NCBI GenBank assembly: GCA_001871075.1
Contig: MNUP01000059.1
Coordinates: 1 to 37,624 of the forward strand
Direction: 5' to 3'
DNA: 37,624 nucleotides
Source of the DNA: Candidatus Desantisbacteria bacterium CG1_02_49_89
Lineage (GTDB): Bacteria; Desantisbacteria; UBA1551
Shown in pieces: positions 2,894-36,999 of the stretch (positions are counted from its first letter, which is position 1; every line of letters begins with the position of its first letter). The translations under genes and the position numbers were made by a program. The notes under the pieces are model-generated. The model worked only from the letters and a program-made list of their open reading frames with translations, was not told where the DNA came from and made no database searches.

Positions 2894-2985
2894 CACAGAT
2901 TGCCACTGATATCCACGGATTACTACATTTAGCTTTCAGCATCCAGCATTCAGCAGATTTTACACATGACTCATGACCCATGACT
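2894..2985. repeat. Three adjacent micro-repeat arrays
   Basis: cacagattgc/cactgatatc/cacggattac (10-mer); tcagcat/ccagcat/tcagcag (7-mer); catgact/catgacc/catgact (7-mer). Confidence 0.8.
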
Positions 2986-3004
2986 GCCTTTAAAGGGAGA
3001 AACC

Positions 3005-3985
3005 ATGCTGACTTCGAAGAAGGTGAAGGAATACGCGAAAAAATGCGGGGCTGACATAGCAGGCATTGCGTCGATGGACAGGTTCGAGGGCGCGCCCAAG
3101 CAGATGGACCCCCGCTATATTTTCCCAGACGCCAAGGCGATGATCGTGATGGGTTTCAGAATACCCAGGGGATGTTTCAGGGGAATAGAAGAAGGGACAT
3201 ATTTCGCGAACTACTGCTCGTTCGGCTACTATCACATAAACCTTGTGCGCGCAATGGACACGCTCAGGGACGTAACAATTTTCTTAGAGGACGAAGGATA
3301 CGAAGCAGTGCCTTACGACAATACGAGCGTAAGGCTGGGCTGCGACGCGGGAAGAGCGGTGTCCCCGGAAAAACCCAGGCCGGACGTGTTCGTGCACTTC
3401 CGCATAGCGGCTTTTGCGGCAGGCCTGGGAGAGATCGGGTACAGCAAGGTATTCCTCACGCCGGAATTCGGGCCGAGGCAGAGGTTCGCGCTGATACTTA
3501 CCGACGCGCCGCTTGAGCCAGACCCGCTTTTTAAGGGCGGCCTTTGCGACAGGTGCATGCAATGCGCGAAAGAATGCTCGGGAAACGCTATCAGCCGGAC
3601 AAAGACGGTAAAGATCAAAGTTGCCGGAAAAACGTGTGAATGGGGAGAACTCGATGAGGTGAAATGCGCCGGTGCATATGAGGGAGGGATAACCGAAACC
3701 AACCCTTTTCTTCCGGAGAATCTCAGGGAGGAGATCAATAGATTGCTTAAAGAGGCGCCGAAAGACGACTGGCAGGCGCAGGCAGCTTATTCGAGCAAGG
3801 TATGGAATTTCATACGGGACAAGGTCCCGTATAACCGCGCCGCGTGGGAATCATACCACCATCCCGCGCCCATTGAGGGCGCAAGAGGCTGCATGCGCGC
3901 GTGTATGATCCACCTGGAAGAACAGGGAAAGCTGAAAAACAAGTTCAAAGAGCCTTTCAGGCGGGGAAAGGCCTGGAAACTGTAA
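3005..3985 (+). CDS. Epoxyqueuosine reductase / reductive dehalogenase-like 4Fe-4S protein
   Basis: GADIAGIA N-terminus; AAFAAGLGEIGYS..LTPEFGPRQRF..ILTDAPLEPD; CDRCMQCAKEC and GCMRAC; GGGAG RBS. Family call only, true QueG activity is not shown. Confidence 0.7.
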   Translation: MLTSKKVKEYAKKCGADIAGIASMDRFEGAPKQMDPRYIFPDAKAMIVMGFRIPRGCFRGIEEGTYFANYCSFGYYHINLVRAMDTLRDVTIFLEDEGYEAVPYDNTSVRLGCDAGRAVSPEKPRPDVFVHFRIAAFAAGLGEIGYSKVFLTPEFGPRQRFALILTDAPLEPDPLFKGGLCDRCMQCAKECSGNAISRTKTVKIKVAGKTCEWGELDEVKCAGAYEGGITETNPFLPENLREEINRLLKEAPKDDWQAQAAYSSKVWNFIRDKVPYNRAAWESYHHPAPIEGARGCMRACMIHLEEQGKLKNKFKEPFRRGKAWKL

Positions 3986-3999
3986 AACAGAATAAATAC

Positions 4000-4400
4000 A
4001 TTGTAAATCTCAAATTGCAAATTGTAAATTGCAAAATTAAGAAATAACCACGGAGACACAGAGAAATACATTCAGCCACGGATGCACACAGATAAATAAC
4101 TTTTGGCTGTTGCTGACAACTCACAACTGACAACTGCCTATAGCAGCCACAGGTTAACACTGTCATAAAATTAACCACAGAGACACGGAGACACAGAGGA
4201 AAACTTTTTACAGGGATCTTCGAAAGAGATTTAAAAAGCTCAGCCACGGATAAATACTTTTTTGGCTTCAAACTCATGACAAATGACTAATGCCTGCCCG
4301 CCAATCTTACTGGGTGGGACAAATGACTGCCTTCAGCCACTGAGTTCACTGAATTCACTGAGAAATTTCCTTCAGCTAATGAGCAAATGAGCTATTGAGC
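4000..4400. repeat. Mosaic of about 9 different micro-repeat arrays
   Basis: aaattgc/aaattgt; acacagag/acacggag; ctgacaa/ctcacaa; agccacaggttaacactg; atgacaa/atgacta; cactgagtt/cactgaatt; gctaatga/gcaaatga/gctattga. Confidence 0.85.
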
Positions 4401-4425
4401 GCATTTTATGATTCACGAGGTTATG

Positions 4426-7239: not shown

Positions 7240-7253
7240 TTAAAGAATTGGCG

Positions 7254-7314
7254 GTCATTGCGAACAAAGTGAAGCAATCTAATATTCAGATTGCTTCGTT
7301 TCACTCGCAATGAC
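7254..7314. repeat. GTCATTGCGA...TCGCAATGAC palindromic element, simple copy
   Basis: Terminal IR gtcattgcga/tcgcaatgac and inner IR gaagcaatct/agattgcttc; related copies at 10952-11024 and 30757-30984. Confidence 0.85.
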
Positions 7315-7380
7315 AAACAAGAATCACCCTAACCACAATCCTCCCCCGTTAAAGGGACGAGGAAAATTAAGGAAGTAATT

Positions 7381-8346: not shown

Positions 8347-8355
8347 AGATACATT

Positions 8356-8482
8356 TCAAAAGTCAAATTGCAAATTGCAAAATTTAAATTGACAAAAAAC
8401 TTACAGTGTAATATATAATTTTCTATATTTCTATATTTTAAAAATTTGAAATTTACAATTTACAATTTGAAATTTACAATTT
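8356..8482. repeat. Inverted pair of AAATTG/CAATTT 7-mer arrays around a promoter
   Basis: caaattgcaaattgcaaaatttaaattg on the left and aatttgaaatttacaatttacaatttgaaatttacaatt on the right. Confidence 0.75.
8389..8419 (+). promoter_or_regulatory. Candidate sigma70 promoter for the GH38 gene
   Basis: TTGACA 8389-8394 and TATAAT 8414-8419; 19-bp spacer is longer than optimal. Confidence 0.45.
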
Positions 8483-8493
8483 TAGGAGTATAC

Positions 8494-10998
8494 ATGGTTA
8501 AGCAAATATATGTCGTGCCCTACTGCCATCCTGACTGGGCGTGGACATTTAACAGAGAATGGCATGAGAAAAGATACGTGCTGGTAGCCGAGGAAGCCCT
8601 TGACGCGATAAAAAAGCATCCCCAGTTCCGCTGGTACATGGACCCTTATGTCACCCAGGCAGAAACGATATTAAGGCGCAGGCCGCAATTATATAAGGAA
8701 CTTCGCAAAAGGATAGCCGAGGGGAAGATCGCGGTATGCGGCTCTTTCACAAACCTGCGCCCCACCATGACCGGAGAGGAAACCCAGGTGCGGGACCTGC
8801 AATACGGAAGAAAAATATATAAGGAATTGTTTCCTGAAGCGGACTTATCCGTTTACGCTGGCACTGTTGACGTGTCCGTGGGCCACCCGCAGGTGCCCCA
8901 GCTGCTTGCGCTTGCCGGGTACAAGTATTTGCGTTTCTGGAGGCCGTACGTAGCACTTACAAGGAAAAGAGTTCCGCTTGAATTCTACTGGAAAGGATTT
9001 GACGGCTCAAAGATCCTGTGCTCAAGAGGAACATACGGCGGGCTGTGCTCAGCTGAAAACCTGGCTGAAGAACTTAACAACATGGCTGAAAGGGATAATG
9101 ACCTCCGGCCGGTAAGTATCGCCTGGGTAAGCCAGGGCACAGATGACTGCAGGCCTTTAAGAACACCTTATTCCGACAAACCCCTGCCGCTTTTGGAGCT
9201 CATGGAGGAATTGAACAGCAAGGAAGGCGTGAAGGTAAATTTCGCCACCCCGCCGCAGTATTTCAGGGAGATAGAAAAGCACATGTCAGAGATACCTGAG
9301 GTAAACGGCTCGCTTGACCCCTGCGACGTGTGCTACAACGTCGGGTGGGGAGGAGCGAACGGGCTTTTCGCCCTCCGCCAGGAGAATGAGATAAATCTTA
9401 CAACGCTTGAAACGTGGAACACTATCAGAGACATTAACAACATTAAAAACATTAGAGACATTGGGGACATTGAAGACATTGAAGACATGTGGAAAACGCA
9501 CCTTCTTTCCTGCGCCCACGCCACCCAGTGGCTTTTCGAGGACGATTTCAACAAGCTTTACAATAAAGCTTTAAACGTGAAACTCGAAACCTCTGAAACA
9601 ATTGAAGCAGTCTTATCTTCTCTTGCCCGGCTTATCCGCCTGCCTGAAACCGCGCAGGCTGTTGTTTTCAACTCCCTGCCGTTTGAAAGGGAGGAATGCG
9701 TCAGGATGCTTCTCACCTTCCCGGATTCCTGCGCCGAATTCTCGCTTGCGGATGCAAAAGGCAGGGATATTCCCTTCCAGGTGCTGGATAAGAACGAGAA
9801 TTCCTCAAGATCATATGAATTTGACGTTGCGGCAAAAGTGAAGATCCCGGCCTGCGGCTATAACGCTGTTTCCGCGGCCAAGCCTGGCCTGAAACCCGCC
9901 ATGCGGGGAGAAGGGGCAACGGTTGAGTTCAACGGGAGCGATCCGGTATGTATCAAGGCAGGCGGGAAGGAATACAGAGCGGAAAGTGATAGCAGTTTCG
10001 CGGACCTGAAACTGTACCGGGTGGACACGGCAAAAGGCGCCCTGCACGCCGGGCCAATAACTTCCGTTGAGCGGGTGAAATGGGGCATCGCAAAAACTAC
10101 CGCGGATGGGGACCTTTTTTCGGTTTACAGGTCAGAAGGTTCTGCGGGGCCGCACCCCGTTACAAGAGAGATCACGGTTTATAAGGATAAACCGGTCATT
10201 GACATCAACGTTGAGGTAAAATGGGGCGCTGAAGACGGATTCCTGGCGCTTGAGTTCCCGCTCCTGTTCAAAGGGAAGATCTTCGGGGACACGCCTTTTG
10301 CTGTTGAAGAGAAGGATATTGAAAAAGAGCCGTTCCTCGCAGAGGGCGAGAGCTGCTGGGAAAATATTGAAAGGCAGAGGAAAGGCCTGTTTTACGCGAA
10401 GTCCTTCATAAGCCAGAGTGACGGCGAAGGAAGCGTTTCATACCTGAATTATGACGCGTCGCATTACTATTTTCTGCCTGGCGGGGACAGTATCGGAAAT
10501 ATTCTCATAAACAGCGTGACAAAGCTTGAGGGATGGGAAAGGTTCGTGAACAAGGCAATGCGGGCAGAAGGAACGCACAGGTTCGCGTCCCGCCTTATTT
10601 TCCATAAAGGTGACTGGAGGTCCGCGCACATCGCCCGGGTCTCACAGGCGTTTGCAAGGAAACCCGGAATTATAGCAGCGGAAGGATCTACAAGGTGCCC
10701 GCCGCAGGAACCGGCGGGTTCCTTCCTGTCGCTTGAACCTTCAAACCTTATTATGACCGGATTTTACAGGGAAGGGAAAAACTTCATACTGCGGTTTTAC
10801 GAAACTGGGGGGAGAAAAACAAAAGCAAGGATAAAGCTTCCTTTTACTGCAAAGAAGGCTGTGAAAATTGATTTGCAGGGAAAAATTATTACCATTCTTA
10901 AACATGGTAAAACTTTAAAGCTTGAAGTAAGGCCCTGGGAAATAGTTTCTTTGTCATTGCGAGGTCGCCCTGGGCGGCCGCGGCAATCTGAACGCTAG
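8494..10998 (+). CDS. Glycoside hydrolase family 38 (alpha-mannosidase-like), divergent
   Basis: YVVPYCHPDWAW, EFYWKGFDGSKIL, VVFNSLPFER, ILRFYETGG...LEVRPWEIVSL; ATG 8494 follows AGGAG, and the ORF-track extension from 8446 is repeat-derived. Confidence 0.75.
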   Translation: MVKQIYVVPYCHPDWAWTFNREWHEKRYVLVAEEALDAIKKHPQFRWYMDPYVTQAETILRRRPQLYKELRKRIAEGKIAVCGSFTNLRPTMTGEETQVRDLQYGRKIYKELFPEADLSVYAGTVDVSVGHPQVPQLLALAGYKYLRFWRPYVALTRKRVPLEFYWKGFDGSKILCSRGTYGGLCSAENLAEELNNMAERDNDLRPVSIAWVSQGTDDCRPLRTPYSDKPLPLLELMEELNSKEGVKVNFATPPQYFREIEKHMSEIPEVNGSLDPCDVCYNVGWGGANGLFALRQENEINLTTLETWNTIRDINNIKNIRDIGDIEDIEDMWKTHLLSCAHATQWLFEDDFNKLYNKALNVKLETSETIEAVLSSLARLIRLPETAQAVVFNSLPFEREECVRMLLTFPDSCAEFSLADAKGRDIPFQVLDKNENSSRSYEFDVAAKVKIPACGYNAVSAAKPGLKPAMRGEGATVEFNGSDPVCIKAGGKEYRAESDSSFADLKLYRVDTAKGALHAGPITSVERVKWGIAKTTADGDLFSVYRSEGSAGPHPVTREITVYKDKPVIDINVEVKWGAEDGFLALEFPLLFKGKIFGDTPFAVEEKDIEKEPFLAEGESCWENIERQRKGLFYAKSFISQSDGEGSVSYLNYDASHYYFLPGGDSIGNILINSVTKLEGWERFVNKAMRAEGTHRFASRLIFHKGDWRSAHIARVSQAFARKPGIIAAEGSTRCPPQEPAGSFLSLEPSNLIMTGFYREGKNFILRFYETGGRKTKARIKLPFTAKKAVKIDLQGKIITILKHGKTLKLEVRPWEIVSLSLRGRPGRPRQSER

Positions 10999-11024
10999 AT
11001 TGCTTCACTGCGTTCGCAATGACA
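10952..11024. repeat. GTCATTGCGA...TCGCAATGAC element overlapping the GH38 C-terminus
   Basis: tgtcattgcga/tcgcaatgaca IR and gcaatct/agattgc inner IR; encodes SLRGRPGRPRQSER plus the stop codon. Confidence 0.85.
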
Positions 11025-11041
11025 TGCAAGACCGGACAAAT

Positions 11042-11080
11042 AAAAAAAAGGGGGGCATTCAGCCCTCCTTTTTATTTTTT
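11042..11080. terminator. Probable bidirectional intrinsic terminator
   Basis: A-run, GGGGGGC-attca-GCCCTCC, T-run, lying between convergent genes. Confidence 0.7.
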
Positions 11081-11869: not shown

Positions 11870-11870
11870 A

Positions 11871-12072
11871 AAAACCTAAACCTTAACCACAGAGTCAACA
11901 GAGAATAATATTTAACCACGGATTAACACGGATTTTTACTTGTAAACTTGTAAACTGTGTAAACTCTGTAAACTACATTTGAAACCACAGGTTAACACAG
12001 GTTAACACTGTTTCTACTTTGATTCTATGACTCTCTAACTCTATCTTATGCCATACGCTATACGCCATTTGC
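11871..12072. repeat. Mosaic of micro-repeat arrays
   Basis: aaccacagag; aaccacggattaacacggatt; taaacttg/taaactgtg/taaactctg; aaccacaggttaacacaggttaacactg; tatgcca/tacgcta/tacgcca. Confidence 0.85.
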
Positions 12073-14037: not shown

Positions 14038-14078
14038 TTTAAGATTAAAACGATGCACGATGAACGATGTTACGAGAA

Positions 14079-15062: not shown

Positions 15063-15078
15063 TGTTCTCCTTAAAGAA

Positions 15079-15181
15079 AATTATGAGTTATGATTTATGA
15101 GTTATGAATTAACAACAAGGTATTAATTTATATGAAATTCCATGCTTTTGACTCATAACTCATCATTCATAATTCATAATT
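15079..15181. repeat. Inverted pair of TTATGA/TCATAA 7-mer arrays
   Basis: aattatgagttatgatttatgagttatgaatt (15079-15110) faces actcataactcatcattcataattcataatt (15151-15181). Confidence 0.85.
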
Positions 15182-15186
15182 GTCAG

Positions 15187-15861: not shown

Positions 15862-16011
15862 AACCACGAATTGTTTGCTTCGCAACATTCTTTGTGAGTT
15901 ACGTCGATAAACGACGAATTGCACGAATTTTCTCTTTAACCTTTTAACCTCTTTAACCACTTTAACCTTTAACAGTATTTACAGTGGGCTGTCGACTGTG
16001 GACCGTGGACT
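15862..16011. repeat. Micro-repeat arrays
   Basis: cacgaatt x3 (interrupted); ttaacc 7-9-mer array; gtgggct/gtcgact/gtggacc/gtggact. Confidence 0.75.
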
Positions 16012-19162: not shown

Positions 19163-19378
19163 AACGTAACATCGTGCATCGTAACATCGTTGTTCGTTAA
19201 AATTAAGCCGATGTTACTATGTCCGGAGAGCCATCGACCCAGCCGGAGAATCATTAGCCCCGTTCTGATTCGTAGGTCCCGCCGTTGAACTCCTTAGGAG
19301 CTGGCGGGGCTCTGACTCGTAGGTCCCTGTGTTAAGCCCCGGTTTTATCGGGGCTATAGGGATTACGAGGTTACGAAT
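19163..19378. repeat. CATCGT 7-mer array plus nested hairpin / direct-repeat structure
   Basis: cgtaacat/cgtgcat array; 17-bp DR tctgaYtcgtaggtccc at 19264 and 19311; IR agccccg/cggggct. Confidence 0.7.
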
Positions 19379-20514: not shown

Positions 20515-20575
20515 CGTGCATCGTCCGTCGCAATAATATTAACTATCTTATAATGTATTATCTTGGATCCCTTCT

Positions 20576-21030
20576 CTATTTCGCGAGTATCGACTTGGTC
20601 TTGGCGATGATCACAAGAGCTATGGTGTCAGCTTTCGCTATTTTGAAGCGGATGTGACGCAGTCAACCCCGGTTCCTTTGGGCGCCCAGTCCTCTCCACC
20701 CACGGTCGTGAACAGGATGACTTTTTTCTTGTCGGTATCGCTGAGTTTTTTCAGGAACTTCTTGACTTTTCCTTCAACCTGCCACGCCATGCAGGTATTG
20801 ACAATGATCACAGCGCCATAACTATCAACCGGTTCCTTCAGGGCTTTATTCATCTCAAAAAGCTTGACCGTGTTCTTGTCTTTTTCGAGTTCGGTCTTGA
20901 CCTTCGAAATTACCGCGTCCTTGAACTCGCTTTTCTTGGCCGCTATAAACACGGTCTTGTCAGCTGCCCCCGCGATCCCTGCCGAAGCTATAATTGCCAG
21001 TATCTGCGATAAAATAATCGCTTTTTTCAT
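20576..21030 (-). pseudogene. Secreted flavodoxin-fold-like protein with an apparent 1-nt deletion frameshift near the C-terminus
   Basis: ORF stops at SASK* (20638); one more A in the A4 run (20641-20644) gives SASKIAKADTIALVIIAKTKSILAK* ending at 20576; start ATG 21030 after GGAGG. Could be a sequencing error or a genuine shorter protein. Confidence 0.5.
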
Positions 21031-21060
21031 TCTCCCTCCCGCTATTGCATGCAAATATTC

Positions 21061-21083
21061 GCAAACCTAAAGGTTTGCCCTAC
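21061..21083 (-). repeat. GTAG REP-like hairpin
   Basis: Minus strand reads GTAG-g-GCAAACC-ttta-GGTTTGC. Confidence 0.75.
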
Positions 21084-21098
21084 GCTTTAACACCGTAA

Positions 21099-21970: not shown

Positions 21971-22110
21971 ATGATTACGGTGATTTTAAAAGATGATTAC
22001 AGTGATTATTTAAAAATGATTACGGCGATAAATAATTGACCGCGGATTTCAAACTCTGAAAACTGTGTAAACTTTATAAACTATGTAAACTTGCAGTCTT
22101 GTAAGCTTGT
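21971..22110. repeat. GATTACRGYG x3 and AAACT 9-mer array
   Basis: atgattacggtgatt / atgattacagtgatt / atgattacggcgat; aaactctga/aaactgtgt/aaactttat/aaactatgt. Confidence 0.85.
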
Positions 22111-23316: not shown

Positions 23317-23463
23317 CAATGCAAAAGTCAAAATGTAAAGATTTCCACGAAAACACGAAAGTGTCACGAAAGCACGAAAAAACATTGAAGCGACTACGGA
23401 ATTTGCATGACGGAACGTCGCGCCGCTACATATACTCTGTAAACTCTGTAAACTTTGAAAACT
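23317..23463. repeat. Uninterrupted CACGAAA array, GTAG hairpin and AAACT array
   Basis: aagatttccacgaaaacacgaaagtgtcacgaaagcacgaaaa 23338-23380; ...cgccgctac 23405-23429; actctgtaa x2. Confidence 0.8.
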
Positions 23464-24703
23464 ATGGAAACTTGTATATGATAAGCCCTGACAGCGGCTT
23501 GGGATAGAAATACGTTGCCTTGTGGGGCATTTTCTCGCCGCTGAGCGCTATCTCGCGCACGGTTTCCGGCTTTATGGAATTCAGGAAGAACACCGCGCTG
23601 TACCCGCCGGTGTCCACAAGCTTCTTCGCCTCGGCTTCATCCGTGACGTATTTTATGTTCTCGCCGGGCACCTCTCCAAGCTTAAGTATGTTATGCAGGA
23701 AGAAGTGATGCAGTATGACCATGTTCAGGCGCCTCCAGCACGGCGGGACATCGCCGTGGAACAGCCTTTCGACCTGGCGGATATCCCTGGCCTCAAGCAG
23801 CTCGAAGATGTTTCCGCCCGCGTACATCCCGAACCCATAGAACCCCGGTTTAAGGCAAGCGATCATCCTGCCCGGCGAACCGAATCTGGTAACCCTGAAA
23901 TATCTATTGACCAACTTAAGGAATTCCGGAGAACTGAGCCGGACAGCGGTTTTTATGGCGCGGTGCGTGGGAAGTATTTTCAGGCCCTTGTCTTCCATGG
24001 AAACGAAAAGACCCATAGTATACCCGGCGCCTTTTGCCTCCCTGCTGTATTTCAGGGCTACGTCGTAGCGGTGGTGGCCGTCCGCAATGAACACCTTTTT
24101 CTTTTTCATTTCTCTGACGAAAACGCTGACAGATCCCGGGTCCGCCACTCTCCACACCCTGCTCTTCACCCCCTGGAACTCAAGCGATTCAAGAGGCTGG
24201 CGCGCAACGGTTTTTTTAAATATCTTCTCGAGAGCGCTGCTTCCCGGAGAATAAAGGAAAAAGATCGGATTGAAGTTCGCCCTGCAGAGCCGTAGCAGGC
24301 TGAGCCTGTCCACGCGGTGGCTAAGGAACGTGTCCTCGTGGGGGAAGATGCCGCGGCCGTATTCCTCCACGCGCAGAGCGGCGACAAAACCCGTCCTTTT
24401 CTCGCCGCCGCATTCCTGAGTGCAGACGTATATCGCCGGGGACCTTCGGTCACTCACGAGAACGCCTTCCTTTATCCAGTTCCTGAAAGATCTAAGCGCG
24501 CGGGTGTATTTGTTATCCCTTGAAGAATCCCCGGGTTTTGTTTTCCCAAGTATTATACGGGTGATATTGCGGGGGGAGCGCCTGTAAAGATCCTCCTGGT
24601 CTTTGGGGGAGATCACGTCGTATGGCGGTGCAAGGACCTTCGAAAGGTCCCTGAACTTCGCCGGATTGTACATCAGCGCTTTAAACGGCTTGATCGTCGG
24701 CAT
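23462..24703 (-). CDS. DUF1015 family protein
   Basis: IKPFKAL, APPYDVIS, IFPHEDT, IADGHHRY, ILPTHR, MPHKATYFYPKPLSGL. Confidence 0.9.
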   Translation of the reverse strand: MPTIKPFKALMYNPAKFRDLSKVLAPPYDVISPKDQEDLYRRSPRNITRIILGKTKPGDSSRDNKYTRALRSFRNWIKEGVLVSDRRSPAIYVCTQECGGEKRTGFVAALRVEEYGRGIFPHEDTFLSHRVDRLSLLRLCRANFNPIFFLYSPGSSALEKIFKKTVARQPLESLEFQGVKSRVWRVADPGSVSVFVREMKKKKVFIADGHHRYDVALKYSREAKGAGYTMGLFVSMEDKGLKILPTHRAIKTAVRLSSPEFLKLVNRYFRVTRFGSPGRMIACLKPGFYGFGMYAGGNIFELLEARDIRQVERLFHGDVPPCWRRLNMVILHHFFLHNILKLGEVPGENIKYVTDEAEAKKLVDTGGYSAVFFLNSIKPETVREIALSGEKMPHKATYFYPKPLSGLIIYKFP

Positions 24704-24721
24704 CACCACTCCTGAAAAAAC

Positions 24722-24824
24722 GTTGCTGGTTACTCGTTACTGGTTGCTGGTTAAATCTGCTGAATGCCTGAAAGTGCTGAAAGCTGAATGTAAAATCTGT
24801 GCTAATCCGTGTTAATCCGTGGTT
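24722..24824. repeat. Three micro-repeat arrays, two of them reverse complements of words used elsewhere
   Basis: gttgctg/gttactc/gttactg; tgctgaa; aatccgtgtt 10-mer, the reverse complement of aaccacggattaacacggatt at about 11914. Confidence 0.8.
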
Positions 24825-24832
24825 AAATGTAG

Positions 24833-25615: not shown

Positions 25616-25626
25616 TACACCTCTGG

Positions 25627-25736
25627 GATTACGGTGATTTTAAATAATGATTACGGTGATTATTTGAAGATTAGCAGTTCCTGATATAAAATCACTTTAA
25701 ATAATCACTGTAATCTCAGTCATAATCACTGTAATC
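25627..25736. repeat. Inverted pair of GATTACRGTGATT arrays
   Basis: gattacggtgatt x2 faces aatcactgtaatc x2. Confidence 0.85.
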
Positions 25737-25740
25737 AATA

Positions 25741-26837: not shown

Positions 26838-26976
26838 TAGTCAATAGTCCATAGACCATAGTCCATAGCGAGCAGTATTTGATTAATGGATTAATGGATT
26901 AATGGTTTCTTGGTTAAAATCGATAAGATCCTTGCAGTTACTCTGACACGTTGACACGTTGATACGCTGACACGCT
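26838..26976. repeat. Three micro-repeat arrays
   Basis: atagtca/atagtcc/atagacc; gattaatg x3; tgacacgt/tgatacgc/tgacacgc. Confidence 0.85.
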
Positions 26977-27003
26977 CTTTTGTTGCGTGCAAGCCGCGGC
27001 GCG

Positions 27004-29019: not shown

Positions 29020-29039
29020 CTAAGTCCTCCCTTCTATTT

Positions 29040-29063
29040 AAAAATGTCATAAATGACATTTTT
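29040..29063. promoter_or_regulatory. Operator-like 11-2-11 inverted repeat in the hppA leader
   Basis: AAAAATGTCAT-aa-ATGACATTTTT between the promoter and the RBS. Confidence 0.45.
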
Positions 29064-29137
29064 TGATTACAGCGATAAAAACCCGATTGCAGCGATTATA
29101 TACTAAGCTCAATAGCTTGATGATATAATTATATTAG

Positions 29138-29165
29138 ATTATATATATATTTTAGAATTTGTCAA
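29138..29165 (-). promoter_or_regulatory. Sigma70 promoter for hppA
   Basis: Minus strand TTGACA (29165-29160), 16-bp spacer, TATAAT (29143-29138). Confidence 0.7.
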
Positions 29166-29277
29166 ATATAATATACTTTGATAGTGAATATTAATGGATT
29201 CCGAAGTTTTAACTTTCAGCCTTCAGCATTTAGCATTCAGCAGATTCGGCTTTCAACTTTTAACCCTTTTAACCTTT

Positions 29278-30741
29278 TTAACCTTTAACTGCTTTTATCA
29301 GCGCGCGCGCCTTATCCAGCGTCTCCCGGTATTCCTTCCTTGGGTCTGAATCAGCGACAATGCCCCCGCCTGCCTGGAAATATGCCTTCCTTCCCTTTAT
29401 CACGAAAGTGCGTATCGCTATGTTCAGGTCAGCGCTGTTGTTGAAACCCAGGTACCCGATCGCTCCGGTGTAAACATTCCTTTTTGTCGGCTCAAGCTCC
29501 TCTATGATCTCCATCGCCCTAATTTTGGGAGCGCCTGTTATCGACCCTCCGGGAAAAGCAGCCATGAGCAGGTCCACAACGCCTTTTCCTTTATAAAGCT
29601 TGCCTTCCACTGTTGAAACAGTGTGGAATACTGTGGGAAGTTTTTCAAGCCTTACTGGTTCTTTCACGCGCACAGTCCCGTAATCGCACACCCTGCCAAG
29701 GTCGTTCCGCTCAAGATCAACTATCATCACAAGCTCAGCCCTGTCTTTTCTGCTTGCCATAAGCTCATCTGCCAATTTCCTGTCTTCAGCCGGAGTTCTG
29801 CCCCGCGGCCTTGTGCCCTTTATCGGCCTTGTCTGGACATCCCTGTCCCGAACTCTGAGGAAAAGCTCAGGCGAGGAACTGACAATACTAAAGGTTCCGT
29901 AATCAAGATACGCGGAAAAACAAGCCGGGTTTATGTTGCGCAGTCTTTTAAACAGCTCAAATGGATGTGTATCAATATGGCACATAAACCTTTGAGATAA
30001 ATTTGCCTGATATATATCTCCTATTGAAATATAGTGTTTTGCGCGCTTAATAGCCCTTACATAGCCAGAATAGGTAAAATTAGATGTCAGTCTACCACTT
30101 TTAATATGCCTTTTTAGCTCTTTTTGGGATTTGGTATCTGCTTTATTAGTTTCTTTAATTCTATTTTGGGTTGACGTTAACCAGTCTCTATTTATCCCAA
30201 AGATATAAGCCTTTTTCTTGAAATTGTCAAAAACCATACCCTGGTTATAAAAACATAAATAGCAATCCGGTAAATTAATATCGTCTTTGGCTATATTGGG
30301 CAGTTTTTCAACATGCCATCCCAGATCATACGCGAAGTAGCCGACTGCGCCGCCGGTGAAGGGCGGTCGTGCGTCGTGCGTCGTAACATCGTAACATCGT
30401 ACGTCGTAGGGCAAGGCTTTAGCCTTGCAATCCTTAAGGGCAGCCGCAGACTTTTCGAAGACCTCGCCCGTCTCTTTGGGCGGGAGCCTGCGTAATAAAT
30501 CCTTGAGAAGATCAAAAGGATTACCTTTAAGATGCCTGGTTCTGCCGTTCTTTACTATCTCAATTCTTCTGCCTTTGCTGATAAACTTCAGGAAGGGGTC
30601 AGAGCCCATTATTGAATACCTGCCGTATTCAAGGTTAGGCATTCCAGATTCCAGCAGGAACGGATAGGGTTTGTCTTTAAAAACCCTTTCAAATGCTTGA
30701 ACAGGCGTCAGTTTCAGATCAGTAATCTCAATTATTTTCAT
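29278..30741 (-). CDS. pabB: Aminodeoxychorismate synthase component I
   Basis: FLLESG, FTGGAVGYFAYD, GDIYQANLSQRF, SSSPELFL, TRPIKGTRPRG, MIVDLERNDLGRVC, FPGGSITGAPKIRAMEII; PIKGT favours PabB over TrpE. Confidence 0.88.
   Translation of the reverse strand: MKIIEITDLKLTPVQAFERVFKDKPYPFLLESGMPNLEYGRYSIMGSDPFLKFISKGRRIEIVKNGRTRHLKGNPFDLLKDLLRRLPPKETGEVFEKSAAALKDCKAKALPYDVRCYDVTTHDARPPFTGGAVGYFAYDLGWHVEKLPNIAKDDINLPDCYLCFYNQGMVFDNFKKKAYIFGINRDWLTSTQNRIKETNKADTKSQKELKRHIKSGRLTSNFTYSGYVRAIKRAKHYISIGDIYQANLSQRFMCHIDTHPFELFKRLRNINPACFSAYLDYGTFSIVSSSPELFLRVRDRDVQTRPIKGTRPRGRTPAEDRKLADELMASRKDRAELVMIVDLERNDLGRVCDYGTVRVKEPVRLEKLPTVFHTVSTVEGKLYKGKGVVDLLMAAFPGGSITGAPKIRAMEIIEELEPTKRNVYTGAIGYLGFNNSADLNIAIRTFVIKGRKAYFQAGGGIVADSDPRKEYRETLDKARALIKAVKG
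30365..30491. repeat. Composite repeat insertion inside pabB
   Basis: GTCGT/ATCGT array 30365-30407, GTAG-g-GCAAGGC-ttta-GCCTTGC 30406-30428, hairpin-in-hairpin about 30446-30491. Confidence 0.85.
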
Positions 30742-30756
30742 ATTCACCGGTTAAAA

Positions 30757-30984
30757 GTCATTGCGAGCCCTGATGTCATATCAGGGCGCGGCAATCCGTC
30801 GTTGCGAGCCGAAGCCGCGAGCAAAGCGTGGCGGGCAGGCGAAGCAATCTCATATTGGATTGCTTCGTCACTTTGCTCTCCGAAGGAGTCCGTATGACTC
30901 TTCGGAGTCCATCGGACCTCGCAACGACGGATTGTCCCGAAGGGATCCCTTTGGGACTTCGTCACTACCGTTCCTCGCAATGAC
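30757..30984. repeat. Nested GTCATTGCGAG...CTCGCAATGAC palindromic elements
   Basis: Outer IR 30757/30984, inner IR cgtcgttgcgag 30797-30808 / ctcgcaacgacg 30918-30929, further small hairpins inside both. Confidence 0.85.
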
Positions 30985-30986
30985 AA

Positions 30987-33443: not shown

Positions 33444-33455
33444 GTTTACCTCTTC

Positions 33456-33567
33456 AATTATGAATTATGAGTTATGCCCCGAGGGGCATTATGAATCAAC
33501 AACGTGGATTTTATTTCAAATAAATACCTTGTTGTTAACTTTCAACCTTCAACTTTTAACCTTTAAC
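33456..33567. repeat. TTATG 7-mer array with inserted hairpin, plus TTAACC/TCAAC array
   Basis: aattatg aattatg agttatg [ccccgagggg] cattatg; ttaactt/tcaacct/tcaactt/ttaacct. Confidence 0.8.
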
Positions 33568-34624
33568 CGAATTTTCTTCCTTCGTCTAACATAGCAAGGT
33601 AGTTCCTGACCGGGACGTAGTTGGCGACCGAGTTGCCTGTGCCCAGGGCGTAGCCGCCTCCGGGCGCGCACTGTTCAAGCACGCTTCGCGTATACGTGCG
33701 CACTTCGTCTTCCGTGTGCCTGCACAGGAAATCCATGTCAATGCCGCCCAGTATCGCTATGCGCTTGCCGTAGATCTTCTTCGCCTCGGTGACCGGAAGT
33801 ATCACGTCCTCGTATGAATGCTTGGCGTCTATCCGCACGGTATCTATCAGGTTATCCATAATTTCTTTAAGGTTCCCGCAGGAATGCAGGATGAACGGCA
33901 CGCCGCGGGCGTGCGCGATGTCCGCAAGCCTTTTCTGGAAAGGGAGCACAAATTTCTTCATCACGTCAGGGCTCATCATAGTGCCGGTCTTATACCCCAT
34001 ATCATCCCCCAGAGCTACCGCGCCGACGTTCTCGAACTGCAAAGCGCGAGCGAATATGTCCGAAAGACAGGTGGTAACCCTTTTTACGATCTCTTCCACG
34101 AAACCGGGGTCCTCAAAAACCTTATAGCACATTGTTTCAAAACCTATAAGCCTTACCGTGTTCTCATAAATACCCCCGGGGCCAAGGAAAACGATCTTCA
34201 TCCCGTCAGGCAGGTTCTTGTTAAGGAACTCCAGCTCATACCAGCTCATAAGCTGCACGGCCGGCCAGGGATATTCCTGTATATTGTTAGCATCCGAAAT
34301 GACGCCGTGATGCTCGTCCTGCCATTCCCTCTGCTCGCGCTGCAGCCCGGCGGTGTCATCCGCCTTAAGGTTGGGGTATGAAAAAACTTCCCTTGACCGC
34401 CCAGCCCTGCCAGTGACGTAGTCATAACCCAGGTCGTGGTAGAATTTTATCACGCCCCTAAGGTATCTCTCTTTCTCGTCCTTGTTCCTGCGGTCAAGCT
34501 TGGTCAAAGGTTCGCCTGTGACAGCTTCCATTATCTCCGGGTCAGCGAAGATCTCGTAGAACGGCACCCTGTCAGGCTCACCCTGCCGCAGCAGCACTTT
34601 TTTCAACACTTCAAAATCCGCCAT
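33563..34624 (-). CDS. Uroporphyrinogen decarboxylase / MtaA-CmuA family protein
   Basis: EPDRVPFYE, LGDDMG, LHSCGN, ILGGID, GGGYALGTGNSV; ATG 34624 after GGGAG, and the ORF-track extension runs through the 84-bp repeat. Confidence 0.85.
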   Translation of the reverse strand: MADFEVLKKVLLRQGEPDRVPFYEIFADPEIMEAVTGEPLTKLDRRNKDEKERYLRGVIKFYHDLGYDYVTGRAGRSREVFSYPNLKADDTAGLQREQREWQDEHHGVISDANNIQEYPWPAVQLMSWYELEFLNKNLPDGMKIVFLGPGGIYENTVRLIGFETMCYKVFEDPGFVEEIVKRVTTCLSDIFARALQFENVGAVALGDDMGYKTGTMMSPDVMKKFVLPFQKRLADIAHARGVPFILHSCGNLKEIMDNLIDTVRIDAKHSYEDVILPVTEAKKIYGKRIAILGGIDMDFLCRHTEDEVRTYTRSVLEQCAPGGGYALGTGNSVANYVPVRNYLAMLDEGRKFG

Positions 34625-34645
34625 ATAAACTCCCTTTTGCAGCCA

Positions 34646-34729
34646 AAGATTTCCACGAAAGCACTCCGCCCGTCTTTCAGCGGGCGAGACTTCGCCCACC
34701 TGAAGGGATGGGCGAGGAAAACACGAAAA
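34646..34729. repeat. 84-bp composite element, copy 2
   Basis: 80/84 identical to 2800-2883, same orientation. Confidence 0.9.
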
Positions 34730-34756
34730 AATAGATCTACGTATTCCCCAGAACCT

Positions 34757-34864
34757 GGAGTAGAGCCTTTAGGCTCGTTTTCTTCAGGAGTAGACCCTTT
34801 AGGGTCGTTAAATAACGGGGCTCCCTCCTTAAAGACTGGCGGGTCTTCGAAAAGCCCCTACTCC
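34757..34864. repeat. Cluster of three GGAGTAG REP-like hairpins
   Basis: ggagta-GAGCC-ttta-GGCTC; ggagta-GACCC-ttta-GGGTC; inverted ggagta-GGGGC-ttt[insert]a-GCCCC. Confidence 0.8.
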
Positions 34865-36927
34865 TGAACTACTATAAAAACTCCTTCATAATCTTTTAGG
34901 TCCAGCTTGATCTTTGTGCGATTGTCAGCAAATTTGAACGCTATTTTCTTAATTTTACCTGTTTCAGGATACCACAAAGATGGCATGCCTTTAACAGGAA
35001 CAGTAACATCAATTTGACACTGATTTTCGCTGATATTTGTGACAAAATAAATATGCTTTCCGCCTTTATAAATATGTTTGTAAAGAATATCCGGGTTCGC
35101 GGGCTCAACCGCAAGGTCGGTTATTTCGAGTTTCTTCAGATACTCTGCGAGCAGCCCGGTTTCAGGCAGGAATTCTCCCATCCCGGTAAACAGCTCTTTC
35201 GAGAGCTTTTCCGCTTCAACGTCATTGTCTTTCATCCCGGCGCCGTATTTCGGCATCATGCCCACCGAAACTACTTTCCCGTCCGCCTGTACGAATTTCA
35301 TCAACTTCTTCAGCGTCTTCACCGGCATCGCATCCGTGGGCGGAATGATTATCACGCTGTATTTTTCGTCGTGCGTCGTAAGTCGCCCTTGCGGGTCGTA
35401 CGTTTTAACTTTCACACTTTGCAATTTACAATTTGCAATTTGAAATTTGTAATTCTGTATCGCTCGGTCGTCCAGGATATCAAAGTCCACCTGGCTTCTC
35501 AGAAGCGCCCTGCACACGCTCGTAAACTCGTCCGCGACCATCTGCGCGGTTTTGTCAGGATGGGCTTCATAGATCGAGCGGCCTGTCGGGTAGAAATTCG
35601 AAAGCACTCCCCATATCGGGTAATAAACCGCGGCATTACATACGTGCTTCCCGCCTGTGAGCATGTATCCCAGCCTTGAAACGCATTCGCAGTATTTCCT
35701 GTATTCGCCGCCGGGGCCGGAAACATTGACCTTGTTGGAGAAAAACGCGTTCGTCTTCAGCTCTTTCCAGAAATGCCCGTAATAGGATGTGATCACGTTC
35801 ACGCCCAGCGCGTATTGCAGGTTCGCGGTCCCTATCATCTGCCTTACAGTAACCTGGATGCCCGCGCAACGCTCGCCGTGGTCCGAGGTTTCGCTCATTG
35901 TCCTGTCAGAACCGATCACATGCGAAACAGAACTGACAAGCTTCGGCGTTATAAAGCCGTTGCCCTCTATAAGATTGCGCGGGTTCGAGGAAAGTACATC
36001 AATACCCGGAAGGTCATACCTTCTGATGCTCCTGTAAAAATCCCCGTAAAAATACGCGTGCCATATAAGGTTTTCCTCGCACAGGGAATGCCCGCTCGCT
36101 TTTATCCCGATCTTGTGGCACCAGGCCTGTATCTGCCCGAAATACCTTTCAGCGCACAGATCAGCGACAACGTCGTAGAAATCGCAGCGCACCTTCCTGT
36201 GTTCATCCCCTGTGCCGCTGAACAGTTTTTCAAGATGCAGCTCAAGAAGATACCCCTTTTTCTTTTTGAAGATTTTCGTTAGATCTTCAACCCAGGGGAT
36301 GCAGGGCGGGAACTGCTGGTTCCCGCGTATATATGCTGTCATAAGCGAAGGCTCGTCTGTGAAAATTGCCCCTACTCGCTTTTTCAGGTTCGGTATGCGT
36401 TTCGCGTATTCTTTATGGGTCAGGTCTATGAACTTTTTTATCGCGTTCTTGTTGATAATGTTCACGTACGGCCTTTTCGCGTGCACATTCTCGGTAGCGT
36501 GGGTGCCGTCGTAGGTTTTTTGGGCTTCGTATTTAATACTGCCGTTTTCTTCCTCCTTACGGACAAGCCCGATGGACTGGTATTCAGGATCGGCTTCAAG
36601 GACCAGGGTTCCCGCCTCTCCTGAAGGATAGCCTTCCTCGTCATAAAGCCACAGCACAAAACCGTGTTTTTCCGCAAGCTTTATGCCGTCGAGCAAGAGT
36701 TTCCACTGGGCTTCGTCCTTCATGTAATTTTTAAAGCTTACGTTGAACACAAGCCCGCCCACCCCGAGATTTTGCAGCAACCTAAGGTTTGTTTCAAGCA
36801 TTTTAAGGTACGCGCCTGCGGCTGACAGCTTTTCGCCCTTTTCGCTGCGCAGAAGGTTGTCAAACCCGTGAATGATCTGCATTACCCGGTATTTGTTATC
36901 TGGATTCTTGAACTGTCTTTTATCCAT
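34858..36927 (-). CDS. Glycosyl hydrolase, GH106 / alpha-L-rhamnosidase-like
   Basis: LWLYDEEGYPSGEAG, AIFTDEP, YFGQIQAWC...GH..EE, PGID, KLVSSVSH, IYFVTN; ATG 36927. Confidence 0.7.
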   Translation of the reverse strand: MDKRQFKNPDNKYRVMQIIHGFDNLLRSEKGEKLSAAGAYLKMLETNLRLLQNLGVGGLVFNVSFKNYMKDEAQWKLLLDGIKLAEKHGFVLWLYDEEGYPSGEAGTLVLEADPEYQSIGLVRKEEENGSIKYEAQKTYDGTHATENVHAKRPYVNIINKNAIKKFIDLTHKEYAKRIPNLKKRVGAIFTDEPSLMTAYIRGNQQFPPCIPWVEDLTKIFKKKKGYLLELHLEKLFSGTGDEHRKVRCDFYDVVADLCAERYFGQIQAWCHKIGIKASGHSLCEENLIWHAYFYGDFYRSIRRYDLPGIDVLSSNPRNLIEGNGFITPKLVSSVSHVIGSDRTMSETSDHGERCAGIQVTVRQMIGTANLQYALGVNVITSYYGHFWKELKTNAFFSNKVNVSGPGGEYRKYCECVSRLGYMLTGGKHVCNAAVYYPIWGVLSNFYPTGRSIYEAHPDKTAQMVADEFTSVCRALLRSQVDFDILDDRAIQNYKFQIANCKLQSVKVKTYDPQGRLTTHDEKYSVIIIPPTDAMPVKTLKKLMKFVQADGKVVSVGMMPKYGAGMKDNDVEAEKLSKELFTGMGEFLPETGLLAEYLKKLEITDLAVEPANPDILYKHIYKGGKHIYFVTNISENQCQIDVTVPVKGMPSLWYPETGKIKKIAFKFADNRTKIKLDLKDYEGVFIVVQE

Positions 36928-36999
36928 CCTTTCTCCCTTTTTTTCATTATGTATTGTCACGAAACGTTACTGGGTTGCTGGGTTATAAATTTTTCAGTT

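Follow-up and report, generated by a model that had tools for sequence, protein, structure and literature searches.

Short-repeat arrays between the genes of a Desantisbacteria bacterium as probable terminal arms of hairpin-armed intervening cassettes

The intergenic spacers of Candidatus Desantisbacteria bacterium CG1_02_49_89 are filled with short, degenerate tandem arrays drawn from a recurrent vocabulary of words, and our analysis suggests that this vocabulary probably represents the terminal arms of two related kinds of hairpin-armed intervening cassette. The arrays are enriched genome-wide, dispersed as composites, fixed in unit number, outward in polarity and linked to two kinds of cargo gene, and this pattern extends across genomes. 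The window, by which we mean the whole 37,624-nucleotide stretch of contig MNUP01000059.1 that was analyzed, comes from an uncultured groundwater bacterium.

Arrays of period 7-10 occur in 934 of the 1494 spacers of the genome, compared with 80-97 in five dinucleotide shuffles, and TRF reports 1985 rows of these periods in spacers versus 85-103 in five such shuffles (period 7 alone: 655 versus 8-20). Array density is 4.72/kb in spacers and 0.51/kb in crude ORFs, and the period spectrum has an abrupt onset at 7, with 90 rows of period 6, 1043 of period 7, 530 of period 8, 413 of period 9 and 330 of period 10. Only 186 canonical words cover 1025 heptamer arrays, the top word being used 103 times, whereas random spacer 7-mers give ~578 words and a maximum of 20 per word. 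A chance origin of the arrays is excluded, and the first outcome that the earlier note named as refuting its reading, words no more recurrent than in shuffled spacers, is not what the data show. Nor is its second, arrays fixed across distant relatives: at a score of at least 40, rows of period 7-10 number 0.453 per kb here versus 0.042 in the only same-order relative and 0.044-0.052 in two control sets, an excess of about 10-fold. The median co-directional gap is 114 bp here, 36 bp in the same-order relative and 15 bp in genomes free of genes for the four-helix-bundle (S23p/IVP) protein.

Within the window, we found the stated word at all 25 of the positions that the earlier note had listed. 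TRF at a score of at least 30 picks up 21 of these arrays; those at 24757, 4276, 12047 and 18756 are missed because they have too few units, but are still readable in the spacer sequence. Of the 24 window spacers of at least 30 bp, 16 contain one or more arrays; four listed arrays (19163, 20491, 30365, 35417) lie within long ORFs; spacer borders are approximate, since a longest-ORF mask served as gene calls. Six of the array-free spacers among these 24 contain multi-copy REP-like hairpins. The window has no IVP or GxxExxY gene, and contains two complete gene-less hairpins and otherwise mostly solo arms (Table 1).

Table 1. Array features of the window, in order of position
Position	Strand	Feature	Basis and observations
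2800..2985	+	Composite string, 186 bp: CACGAAAG array interrupted by nested ~75-nt double-hairpin module, then CCACGGATT units	TRF + BLAST; TTCAGCA x2.7 at 2937-2955, CATGACT x3 at 2965-2985 (TRF); spacer has 79 BLAST matches, longest 188 aligned bases, 82%, to C101:4340-4514; aligned copies have module order in common, last array swapped
4000..4400	+	400-bp spacer, successive arrays	ATTGCAA x5.1, CTGACAA x3.4, CACAGAGA x2.9, CACTGAGTT x2.8, AGCTAATG x3.4; small hairpin nested in ATGACAA array at ~4292-4318, segment with multi-copy BLAST matches
8353..8482	.	Degenerate hairpin	CAAATTG-type units after upstream stop; CAATTT-type units run into next gene start; spacer 8347-8445 has 51 BLAST matches; word pair also brackets IVP gene on C6
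9429..9493	+	Period-9 array inside GH38-like ORF	TRF
11910..12008	.	Composite	TTAACCACGGA x2.2, GTAAACTNT x4.4, CACAGGTTAA x2.3 (TRF); identical module order elsewhere in 24 BLAST alignments of at least 60 bp
14049..14069	.	Solo arm AACGATG x3	TRF; 14 BLAST matches; AACGATG arms on both sides of IVP gene in different genome (L253)
15076..15184	.	Complete gene-less palindromic element	Each arm 4 AATTATG-type heptamers; 40-odd-nt palindromic core; fills gap from stop codon to next RBS; inverted repeat 49 nt, 80% complementary; RNA fold -34.6 kcal/mol, z -6.0
15932..15968	.	Solo array CTCTTTAAC x4.2	Right part of ~100-bp dispersed module 15865-15966, which has BLAST match of 106 aligned bases, 90%, to C124
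18605..18659	-	Solo arm, three GATTACGGTGATT units, 22-23-bp spacing	Immediately upstream of start codon
21971..22091	-	GATTACGGTGATT x3 solo arm by parB RBS (21971-22029), then GTAAACTNT-type x4.6 (22051-22091)	Spacer has 233 BLAST matches
23346..23476	.	CACGAAAG x3.9 and CTCTGTAAA x4.9 at opposite spacer edges	TRF, BLAST
24722..24831	.	GTTACTG x4.6, then TGCTGAA-type array + AATCCGTGTT x3.2	TRF; latter pair is reverse complement of middle of 2800-2985 string; BLAST 81 aligned bases, 78%, inverted, to window 2884-2960
25627..25738	.	Complete gene-less hairpin, GATTACGGTGATT x2 facing AATCACTGTAATC x2	Inverted repeats; RNA fold -32.6 kcal/mol, z -5.7; copies on C106, C118, C64; same arms bracket GxxExxY gene on C45
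26837..26974	.	Three arrays, ATAGTCC x4.6, GATTAATG x3.1, TGACACGT x3.9	TRF; TGACACGT array is solo AACGTGTC-family arm, ~30 bp after pyrophosphatase stop
29215..29290	.	TTCAGCA x4 + TTTTAACCT x3.2	Immediately past trpE stop
30366..30401	-	GTCGTGC x2.7 + TCGTAACA x2.6 inside trpE	TRF; encodes part of trpE linker (~residues 88-130), unalignable with same-order relative
33456..33568	.	AATTATG x3 arm, inner hairpin, AACCTTC x4.6	96 BLAST matches; inner hairpin has CAACAAGG...TTTAT core in common
35414..35454	-	~Six AAATTGC-type heptamers, in frame (KFQIANCKLQ)	Variable loop of 700-aa glycosidase-like ORF
36966..36985	.	GTTACTGG x2.5	In 39-bp gap before RT fragment; spacer has no BLAST match elsewhere

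The arrays are dispersed together with their surroundings. Window spacers match other loci across up to 188 bases, 55% of spacer bases genome-wide match another spacer, and for 900 of 1399 arrays an alignment covers the array and reaches at least 15 bp past it. As the earlier note had argued, one word turns up at loci that have nothing else to do with each other and in either orientation, which local slippage cannot account for. Unit numbers are fixed and do not represent a slippage equilibrium: 44 strict, sharp-ended copies of the AATTATG palindrome are present, most commonly with 4+4 units (22 of 44) and with position-specific unit variants, and runs of four units outnumber runs of five by 84 to 3, both for AATTATG and for AACGTGTC. 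Each unit consists of a conserved core and one or two free positions.

Orientation is coupled to the spacer end in 507 of 606 arrays from 41 word families (null mean 61%, null maximum 65%), with polarity outward, toward the neighboring stop codon or ribosome-binding site. In the GATTACGGTGATT family, the median distance to the downstream start is 16 bp for 67 sense copies, and that to the upstream stop is 4 bp for 19 antisense copies; the polarity table of the AACGTGTC family is [[27,2],[1,13]]. Among 1075 spacer arrays, only 14.2% keep an inverted partner within 150 bp, and 16.7% do so when the range is widened to 600 bp, which weighs against the hairpin reading; the polarity and shared words suggest that the solo-arm majority descended from hairpin elements. 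There is no target duplication, and no pair of filled and empty sites was observed; five window spacers are spanned without gaps by contigs of four other runs.

The earlier note had proposed a link between such arrays and four-helix-bundle and GxxExxY genes, and this link is evident here: 7 of the 12 scored IVP/GxxExxY genes in this genome have an inverted-flank score of at least 18, a level reached by 3 of 331 small genes of other kinds and by ~21 of 1429 larger genes. The arms of the cargo cassettes, 388-443 nt apart in a repeat search, are window words (AAATTGC, CATGACT, ACGACGT, AACGTGT(C), CACRGAG, CACGAATT, GATTACGGTGATT). The GxxExxY gene product matches PF13366, and in flanks read by eye, period 7 is found in 8 of 9 IVP arms versus 0 of 5 GxxExxY arms. 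Such arms also flank nine of 21 IVP genes from five named genomes; the arm word is AATTATG in examples from a Blastocatellia MAG and from a Microcystis. In 29 further genomes, 15 of 29 IVP loci score at least 18 versus 0 of 108 shifted controls, a comparison that slightly favors the IVP loci, since two coordinate mappings were tried for each of them but only one for the controls; of 16 arm periods in this set, 14 are 7. Ten IVP-rich genomes contain 38 period-7 arrays in 383 kb versus 3 in 398 kb for ten IVP-free genomes (p=0.0018; the groups differ in GC content, and two genomes are kin), with other periods equal between the groups. The same-order relative, which has no array excess, also has no match to the IVP gene. 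On the other side, the assembly holds no cargo-bearing copy of AATTATG, the commonest family, and the loops of gene-less elements do not consistently resemble the ends of cargo cassettes. IVP proteins that share their arms across two phyla (45%) are no closer than different-arm pairs within a genome (40-42%).

We propose that the first kind of cassette is built like the ORF-bearing 23S rRNA intervening sequences, with an arm of about four tandem heptamers (~28 bp) and, in full-length members, an S23p/IVP gene in the loop. The second kind would have arms of two or three 8-10-base CACNGAW-type units, including GATTACGGTGATT at 22-23-bp spacing, with a GxxExxY PD-(D/E)XK nuclease gene in its full-length members. 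The arm word would mark a lineage, whose gene-less miniatures may multiply to tens of copies. Elements would occupy most co-directional gene junctions here, with their outer ends abutting the stop codon on one side and the following ribosome-binding site on the other, and may be tolerated because their landing sites fall between cistrons. Most would later have lost one arm, perhaps by deletion of unstable palindromes, leaving each spacer a string of short, oriented, unrelated arrays. Copying would occur at the DNA level without target duplication, with repair copying started by the nuclease and single-strand transposition of the hairpin as candidate routes, and the transcribed stem may be processed, as by RNase III in rRNA intervening sequences.

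It is possible, if unlikely, that the arrays are instead selected cis-elements, either arrays of binding sites or RNA stems with a part in transcript insulation, termination or processing, with IVP and GxxExxY proteins as domesticated trans partners. The exact placement of arrays at stop codons and ribosome-binding sites would suit such a role, as would the fixed unit numbers with their conserved cores, the stability of spacer folds (-30.9 versus -23.2 kcal/mol in shuffles), the slightly better folding of the sense strand (371 versus 290, p=3e-4) and the lack of copy-number change in other runs. Yet the excess is absent from the only same-order relative, different words swap freely at equivalent positions, some arrays lie in frame within ORFs, and no Rfam family match was found. 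The cargo genes, moreover, resemble those of selfish rRNA intervening sequences (PMC4990558). Arms of the AATTATG element contain 30 A-C and 20 G-T pairs versus 1 compensatory pair; with no co-variation, pairing is not visibly selected at variable positions, which counts against the hairpin reading as well.

We consider it improbable that the arrays form a REP/REPIN-type system whose movement depends on RAYT-like Y1 (HUH) transposases. There are 10 Y1_Tnp matches in the genome and one further RAYT-like ORF seen by eye, but what stands on either side of these Y1 genes is classical REP hairpin arrays or short inverted repeats rather than vocabulary arrays, and array density beside them is 0.7 versus an average of 1.77. 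REP-like hairpins do share spacers with the arrays, and target duplication is absent, as in single-strand HUH transposition; the arrays themselves, however, have no short internal palindrome of the REP kind.

In-place replication slippage of the microsatellite or contingency-locus type, with shared words reflecting mutational or compositional bias, is very improbable, even though unit differences within arrays are ordinary point changes (1240 transitions, 1132 transversions), some copies of one family differ by one unit, and the heptamer number of the Coxiella intervening sequence varies between strains (PMC4990558). As the main process it is contradicted by the words shared among arrays (186, not ~578), by unit numbers that peak at 3-4 with almost none above, by flanks and neighboring modules common to different loci and by the coupling of orientation to spacer end, as well as by the near absence of arrays with a period of 6 or less. 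Writing by a reverse transcriptase, in a telomerase-like or diversity-generating retroelement (DGR) process, is extremely unlikely: an RT fragment at 37000-37623 adjoins the GTTACTGG array, and IVP proteins are of the Avd fold family, with PF05635 named in a DGR review, but such writing is contradicted both by this fragment being the genome's only RVT_1 match and by variation that falls on all four bases (6.7-9.3%) with no adenine bias, and arrays are equally dense on RT-free contigs. Of the earlier note's two suggestions, that an active process writes or disperses the arrays or that they are scars of small mobile cassettes, dispersal as cassette parts survives and writing does not, while the arrays would be element termini rather than scars, though mostly solo arms now.

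Hairpin-armed cassettes share features with several known systems. The STRR heptamer arrays of cyanobacteria, attributed to Mazel 1990 and Elhai 2008, reportedly have small dispersed repeats nested within them; the arrays here are likewise intergenic tandem heptamers with small hairpins nested inside, and an AATTATG array is also present in Microcystis, Stigonema, Scytonema and Nostocales records. The present arrays differ in lineage, in using many more words and periods 8-10 too, and in their tie to cargo genes and outward polarity, neither of which, to our knowledge, has been described for STRR. Correia elements of Neisseria are MITEs, co-transcribed, short gene-less inverted-repeat elements near gene ends; the elements here are similar in form and placement, but without target-site duplication or a transposase-bearing parent.

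The closest architecture is that of 23S rRNA intervening sequences. According to PMC4990558, the helix-45 element of Coxiella burnetii has a 28-bp stem, an S23p ORF and tandem GACAGAT heptamers and is excised by RNase III, and Leptospira and Salmonella cases are cited. Shared with these are a small four-helix-bundle gene in the loop of terminal inverted repeats, a 28-bp stem equal to four heptamers, tandem heptamers in the arm, location within a transcribed unit and size (430-500 nt, compared with cassette arms 388-443 nt apart here). The view that the arrays are an undescribed system is upheld only in part: heptameric repeats and a 28-bp stem have already been published for ORF-bearing rRNA intervening sequences (PMC4990558), while our literature search found no paper describing the cassettes or the repeat swarm. 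Unlike the rRNA elements of that account, those here lie between protein genes, number in the hundreds, are mostly gene-less or one-armed, use many arm words per genome and include a nuclease as second cargo; RNase III, the enzyme responsible for excising the rRNA elements, did not turn up in three queries of this 93.5%-complete assembly.

REP/REPIN elements with RAYTs and BIME mosaics are non-autonomous hairpin-forming extragenic repeats whose doublet is the replicative unit (PMC3116915). They too cluster beside or inside one another, make no target duplication and have one protein gene between its own repeats (PMC3116915). The genes flanked here encode IVP and PD-(D/E)XK nuclease rather than HUH Y1 enzymes, however, the arms are tandem arrays rather than a single short palindrome, and the genome's own RAYT-like genes bear different repeats. 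Finally, in the survey of Mori et al. 2018 (PMC6344855), no periodic repeat in the intergenic DNA of many prokaryotes was more abundant than the tandem heptamer, for which the authors saw no clear functional clue; that survey gives no element structure and no gene link, whereas here IVP cassettes have heptamer arms and the density of heptamers tracks the presence of IVP. Thus, the hairpin-cassette reading may provide a concrete lead on the abundance of 7-base repeats between bacterial genes.

Arrays, by which we mean short tandem runs of a 7-10-base unit or word, are found in the window among genes of ordinary housekeeping content (pyrophosphatase, trpE, parA/parB, pilT, hemW, an ABC exporter and glycosidases). 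TRF returns 69 rows there at a score of at least 30, almost all with a period of 7-10 and 2-6 units, while 16 of 24 printed spacers hold an array and 6 others hold multi-copy REP-like hairpins. An earlier note had read particular words at 25 positions, and the word is present at every one of them, 21 being called by TRF and 4 visible in the printed spacers alone. No tRNAs were found, nor any Rfam match at E<=0.1. Run on the complete 2.48-Mb assembly, TRF reports 3328 rows with a sharp onset at period 7 (90 rows at period 6, 1043 at 7, 530 at 8, 413 at 9 and 330 at 10), and array density is 4.72/kb in spacers versus 0.51/kb in ORFs under a crude longest-ORF mask. The note's view that a set of words recurs among the arrays is borne out, and the arrays exceed chance: a row falls in 934 of 1494 spacers of at least 40 bp, against 80-97 in five dinucleotide shuffles; 186 canonical words serve 1025 heptamer arrays, where random spacer 7-mers give ~578 words; and the commonest heptamer word, AATTATG, makes up 103 arrays, where the maximum for random spacer 7-mers is 20.

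This roughly ten-fold excess is particular to the lineage under study. Row density at a score of at least 40 is 0.453/kb in this genome, 0.042 in its only same-order relative and 0.044-0.052 in two control sets. The relative, whose density is thus background, has a word in common with our genome in 26 of its 120 rows; heptamers beside its pth gene, considered as a shared feature, were indistinguishable from chance. No closer kin than this relative was met among the genomes searched, and a search through PilT in one metagenome scan gave a best match of 51% identity, so no orthologous spacers were obtained. By crude gene calls, the great majority of spacers separate co-directional genes (1188, against 98 with divergent and 89 with convergent neighbours), and the median co-directional gap is 114 bp; it is 36 bp in the relative and 15 bp in genomes free of IVP, the S23p/23S-IVP four-helix-bundle protein.

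The arrays are the termini of dispersed elements, and these elements occupy the junctions between co-directional genes. Among 606 arrays of 41 word families, orientation is coupled to the spacer end that the array abuts in 507 (null mean 61%, maximum 65%); for AATTATG, the table of orientation by end reads 48 and 1 in one row and 6 and 37 in the other. An inverted partner lies within 150-600 bp of 14-17% of 1075 spacer arrays, versus 0.4-3.6% in controls, and because so few keep a partner, most arrays are solo arms. The stronger proposal that most arrays are arms of hairpins was accordingly given up, with 204 of 2572 pairing by word match and 14-17% by alignment.

What recurs is larger than the array itself. 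In BLAST, spacers of the window share composite stretches with other loci, the longest covering 188 aligned bases; 55% of spacer bases match another spacer, and for 900 of 1399 arrays an alignment covers the array and extends at least 15 bp past it. The clearest unit is a sharply bounded palindromic family of ~110 bp, to which spacer 15063-15186 belongs and which has 44 strict copies in the genome, 22 of them with 4+4 units (arms of 4 x 7 bases). Its copies have a common palindromic core and position-specific unit variants, and the median copy begins 5 bp past a stop codon and stops 18 bp short of the next start. The window element at 15076-15184 has 49-nt arms that are 80% complementary, and both this element and the complete one at 25627-25738 fold as long stems (z -6.0 and -5.7). 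Within the 44 copies we found no enriched 2-9-bp direct repeat at any boundary offset; the arms do not co-vary, and in this genome no convincing gene lies between AATTATG arms. Other strings recur with their module order kept and their partners swapped, and neighbour pairs recur above chance (top pair 12 times, null maximum 5). The two nested hairpin modules listed in the table also split arrays at other loci.

Features of the window and of other contigs of the same genome (window coordinates unless a contig is named)
Feature	Position	Strand	Details
Small hairpin nested in array	2815-2885		~75-nt double hairpin splitting CACGAAAG array
Small hairpin nested in array	~4292-4318		~27-nt hairpin splitting ATGACAA array
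REP-like GC-rich hairpins, multi-copy, second layer	7254-7314, 10999-11031, 19256-19341, 21055-21098, 30787-30939, 34782-34857		
Period-9 array in GH38-like ORF	9429-9493		
Two arrays in variable TrpE linker	30366-30401		
~Six heptamers, in frame	35414-35454		encode KFQIANCKLQ; variable loop of glycosidase-like protein
Group-II-intron-type reverse transcriptase, C-terminal part	37000-37623	-	cut by contig end; TIGR04416 1.3e-18; RVT_1 3e-12
Y1 transposase-like gene, one IVP cassette and two GxxExxY cassettes	C114:4000-11000 (locus L263)		own arm word each
DUF559/Vsr-like small endonuclease ORF (by eye)	C135:8480-8921		strong direct-repeat flanks, score 34.5

The note had suggested a link between such arrays and genes for four-helix-bundle and GxxExxY proteins, and this link holds. 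The genome has 9 IVP (PF05635) matches over the cut-off, all on contigs other than the window's, and 5 GxxExxY genes, whose proteins match PF13366 of the PD-(D/E)XK nuclease family. In printed flanks nearly every one of these genes is bracketed by inverted arrays of one vocabulary word, the word differing from copy to copy, and an independent repeat search places the arms of these cassettes 388-443 nt apart. The inverted-flank score reaches 18 in 7 of 12 scorable IVP/GxxExxY genes, compared with 3 of 331 other small genes, of which two are RAYT-like, and ~21 of 1429 larger ones; the five GxxExxY genes, on other contigs than the window's, score 22, 21.5, 24, 16.5 and 11.5. Plain array counts near these cargo genes are scarcely raised (2.5 for IVP, 1.8 for GxxExxY, 1.77 for all genes), so the signal is the inverted pairing rather than the number of arrays. 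Read by eye in the printed flanks, arm period is 7 in 8 of 9 IVP cassettes and 8-10 or 21-23 in the 5 GxxExxY cassettes. The window itself has no IVP gene, its copies being gene-less or one-armed, and the GxxExxY cassette-arm words occur in it solely in gene-less or solo copies; the cargo arm words, which include AAATTGC, CATGACT, ACGACGT, AACGTGT(C), CACRGAG, CACGAATT and GATTACGGTGATT, are all present in it. At locus L263 the cassettes sit in successive spacers between ordinary genes. Elsewhere, the DUF559/Vsr-like ORF on contig C135 is possibly a further small selfish gene bordered by repeats. The suggestion that the arrays are traces of small mobile cassettes thus survives as to dispersal in cassette form and as to cargo, and fails as to scars, since the arrays are element termini. 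Gene-less loops, considered as deletion remnants of cargo cassettes, bear no likeness to cargo ends, their BLAST matches being to neighbouring arrays alone.

The same arms occur far outside this lineage. Among species-representative genomes, at least 124 stretches hold a four-unit AATTATG array, the matches listed including Bacteroidota, Cyanobacteria, Lentisphaerae, Acidobacteriota, Nitrospirota and others; a three-unit pattern matches 227, 541, 428 and 51 times in four of these genomes, and 0-1 times when reversed. Strong inverted array arms flank 9 of 21 IVP genes in five such genomes, AATTATG itself being the arm at IVP genes of a Blastocatellia MAG and a Microcystis, and GxxExxY genes in those genomes have 9-10-base arms (for example CACAGATTA). 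At 29 IVP loci from 29 further genomes the score is at least 18 in 15 and at least 14 in 18, compared with 0 and 2 of 108 shifted windows, the IVP loci having been tried under two coordinate mappings and the controls under one. Of the 16 periodic arms in other genomes, 14 have a period of 7. IVP is found in 71 of 201 sampled genomes, and none was found in the same-order relative, where the repeat excess is missing. Period-7 arrays number 38 in 383 kb of ten IVP-rich genomes versus 3 in 398 kb of ten IVP-free ones (p=0.0018), while periods 5, 6 and 11-13 are alike in the two groups (0.126 vs 0.128 per kb). IVP proteins with the same arm are no closer kin than others (45% vs 40-42% identity). 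The pairs TCATAAT/AATTATG and GAATGCT/AGCATTC recur jointly or as IVP arms at loci L117, L128, L135, L240 and L286 of other phyla, in Lentisphaerae, a Bacteroidota isolate and one further genome, which may reflect horizontal spread or convergence.

Several other explanations of the arrays were considered. Slippage, as in a microsatellite or contingency locus, is contradicted as the main process by the unit numbers, whose distribution peaks at 4 (hardly any arrays have 5) rather than decaying: AATTATG and AACGTGTC runs each give 84 cases with 4 units and 3 with 5, and CACRGAG-type and CACGGATT-type runs end at 3. Contigs of four other runs that span 20515-21098, 23357-23461, 24710-24832 and 25616-25740 contain no gaps, so no unit polymorphism is seen, though rare variants could hide in contigs; the same gap-free cover rules out an assembly artefact. 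Logan contigs end at arrays, and many apparent joints in them are other loci with common words. Writing by an active process, which the note had also proposed and which a diversity-generating retroelement or other reverse transcriptase could perform, is not upheld. Within-unit variation is confined to one or two positions, mostly A/G, and unit variants hit all four bases (A 7.6%, C 9.3%, G 8.2%, T 6.7%; 1240 transitions, 1132 transversions) without the adenine bias of such a system, and a profile search finds a single RVT_1 match in the genome, the fragment at the contig end. A promoter reading of words such as TTGACA/TAAACT was rejected by eye because the spacings are wrong.

For the dispersed elements themselves, we envisage copying at the DNA level without target duplication, which the nuclease is a candidate to initiate in the 8-10-mer class; the elements would be tolerated because their stem is removed or harmless in RNA, and would decay to solo arms through palindrome deletion. 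We saw no empty site. Searches with TIGR02191, PF14622 and the relative's RNase III domain did not find RNase III in this genome, whose assembly is 93.5% complete; three further genomes that were searched have the enzyme, the same-order relative among them. Such an outcome is surprising in a genome so rich in long stems. We tentatively suggest, at somewhat less than even confidence, that intergenic heptamers across bacteria, cyanobacterial STRR included, belong as arms to a single undescribed superfamily of hairpin-armed mobile cassettes and 8-10-base CACNGAW-type arrays to a second; that the cargo defines the arm period (7 for S23p/IVP, 8-10 for the GxxExxY PD-(D/E)XK nuclease); and that the present genome is a runaway case, with most operon junctions filled, possibly tied to loss of RNase III. 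If cargo does define arm period, each protein would read or act on its own repeat arms.

Two puzzles would meet here, the function of intergenic heptamers and the role of the uncharacterized IVP family. Heptamer arrays would be the arms of IVP-bearing hairpin cassettes; their density tracks IVP presence across unrelated genomes, and a second arm class accompanies a small nuclease, which makes both puzzles testable. With arrays in 63% of its spacers and its wide co-directional gaps, this genome is an extreme natural case and hence a good place to learn the rules of insertion, decay and tolerance. In practical terms, arrays break short-read assemblies, whose contigs stop there, and add in-frame inserts to enzymes.

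Both puzzles have a published background. In a survey of 7006 prokaryotic genomes, Mori 2018 (PMC6344855) describes tandem heptamers as the most abundant intergenic periodic repeat and finds 'no clear clue' to their function or meaning, and the IVP/S23p family is still termed functionally uncharacterized in a 2024 paper (PMC11270868). A literature search outside Elhai 2008 returned no paper in which heptamer arrays between genes are tied to cassettes of the IVP or GxxExxY kind. Among known systems, MITEs have inverted repeats in common with the elements described here, which differ in the absence of target-site duplication (44 copies). REP/REPIN-RAYT systems are also unlike them: at the 10 Y1_Tnp loci the repeats are REP hairpins or short inverted ones rather than vocabulary arrays, the RAYT-like genes being flanked by classical REP hairpins. 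Hairpins similar in general kind to the window's REP-like layer flank RAYT-like genes on contigs C23 and C111. Cyanobacterial STRR are likewise dispersed tandem heptamers in intergenic DNA, and AATTATG arrays occur in cyanobacterial records too. The GxxExxY cassette architecture, a gene between inverted arrays of 8-10-base units, occurs on other contigs of the genome. A close likeness is that to the 23S rRNA intervening sequence (IVS), which as described in Coxiella (PMC4990558) is a 428-nt selfish element with a 28-bp terminal stem and an S23p ORF, bears tandem GACAGAT heptamers whose number varies among strains, and is excised by RNase III. Like an IVS-type S23p/IVP cassette, the window element has terminal inverted repeats, the arms of the commonest family being 4 x 7 bases against the ~28-bp IVS stem, and, as in the Coxiella IVS, there are tandem heptamers in the arm. 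Unlike it, the window elements have no PF05635 ORF in the loop, and whereas the rRNA IVS sits in a 23S helix, these lie between protein genes of a genome in which RNase III was not found. The elements are thus IVS-like and live between genes, and this genome is an extreme case of them.
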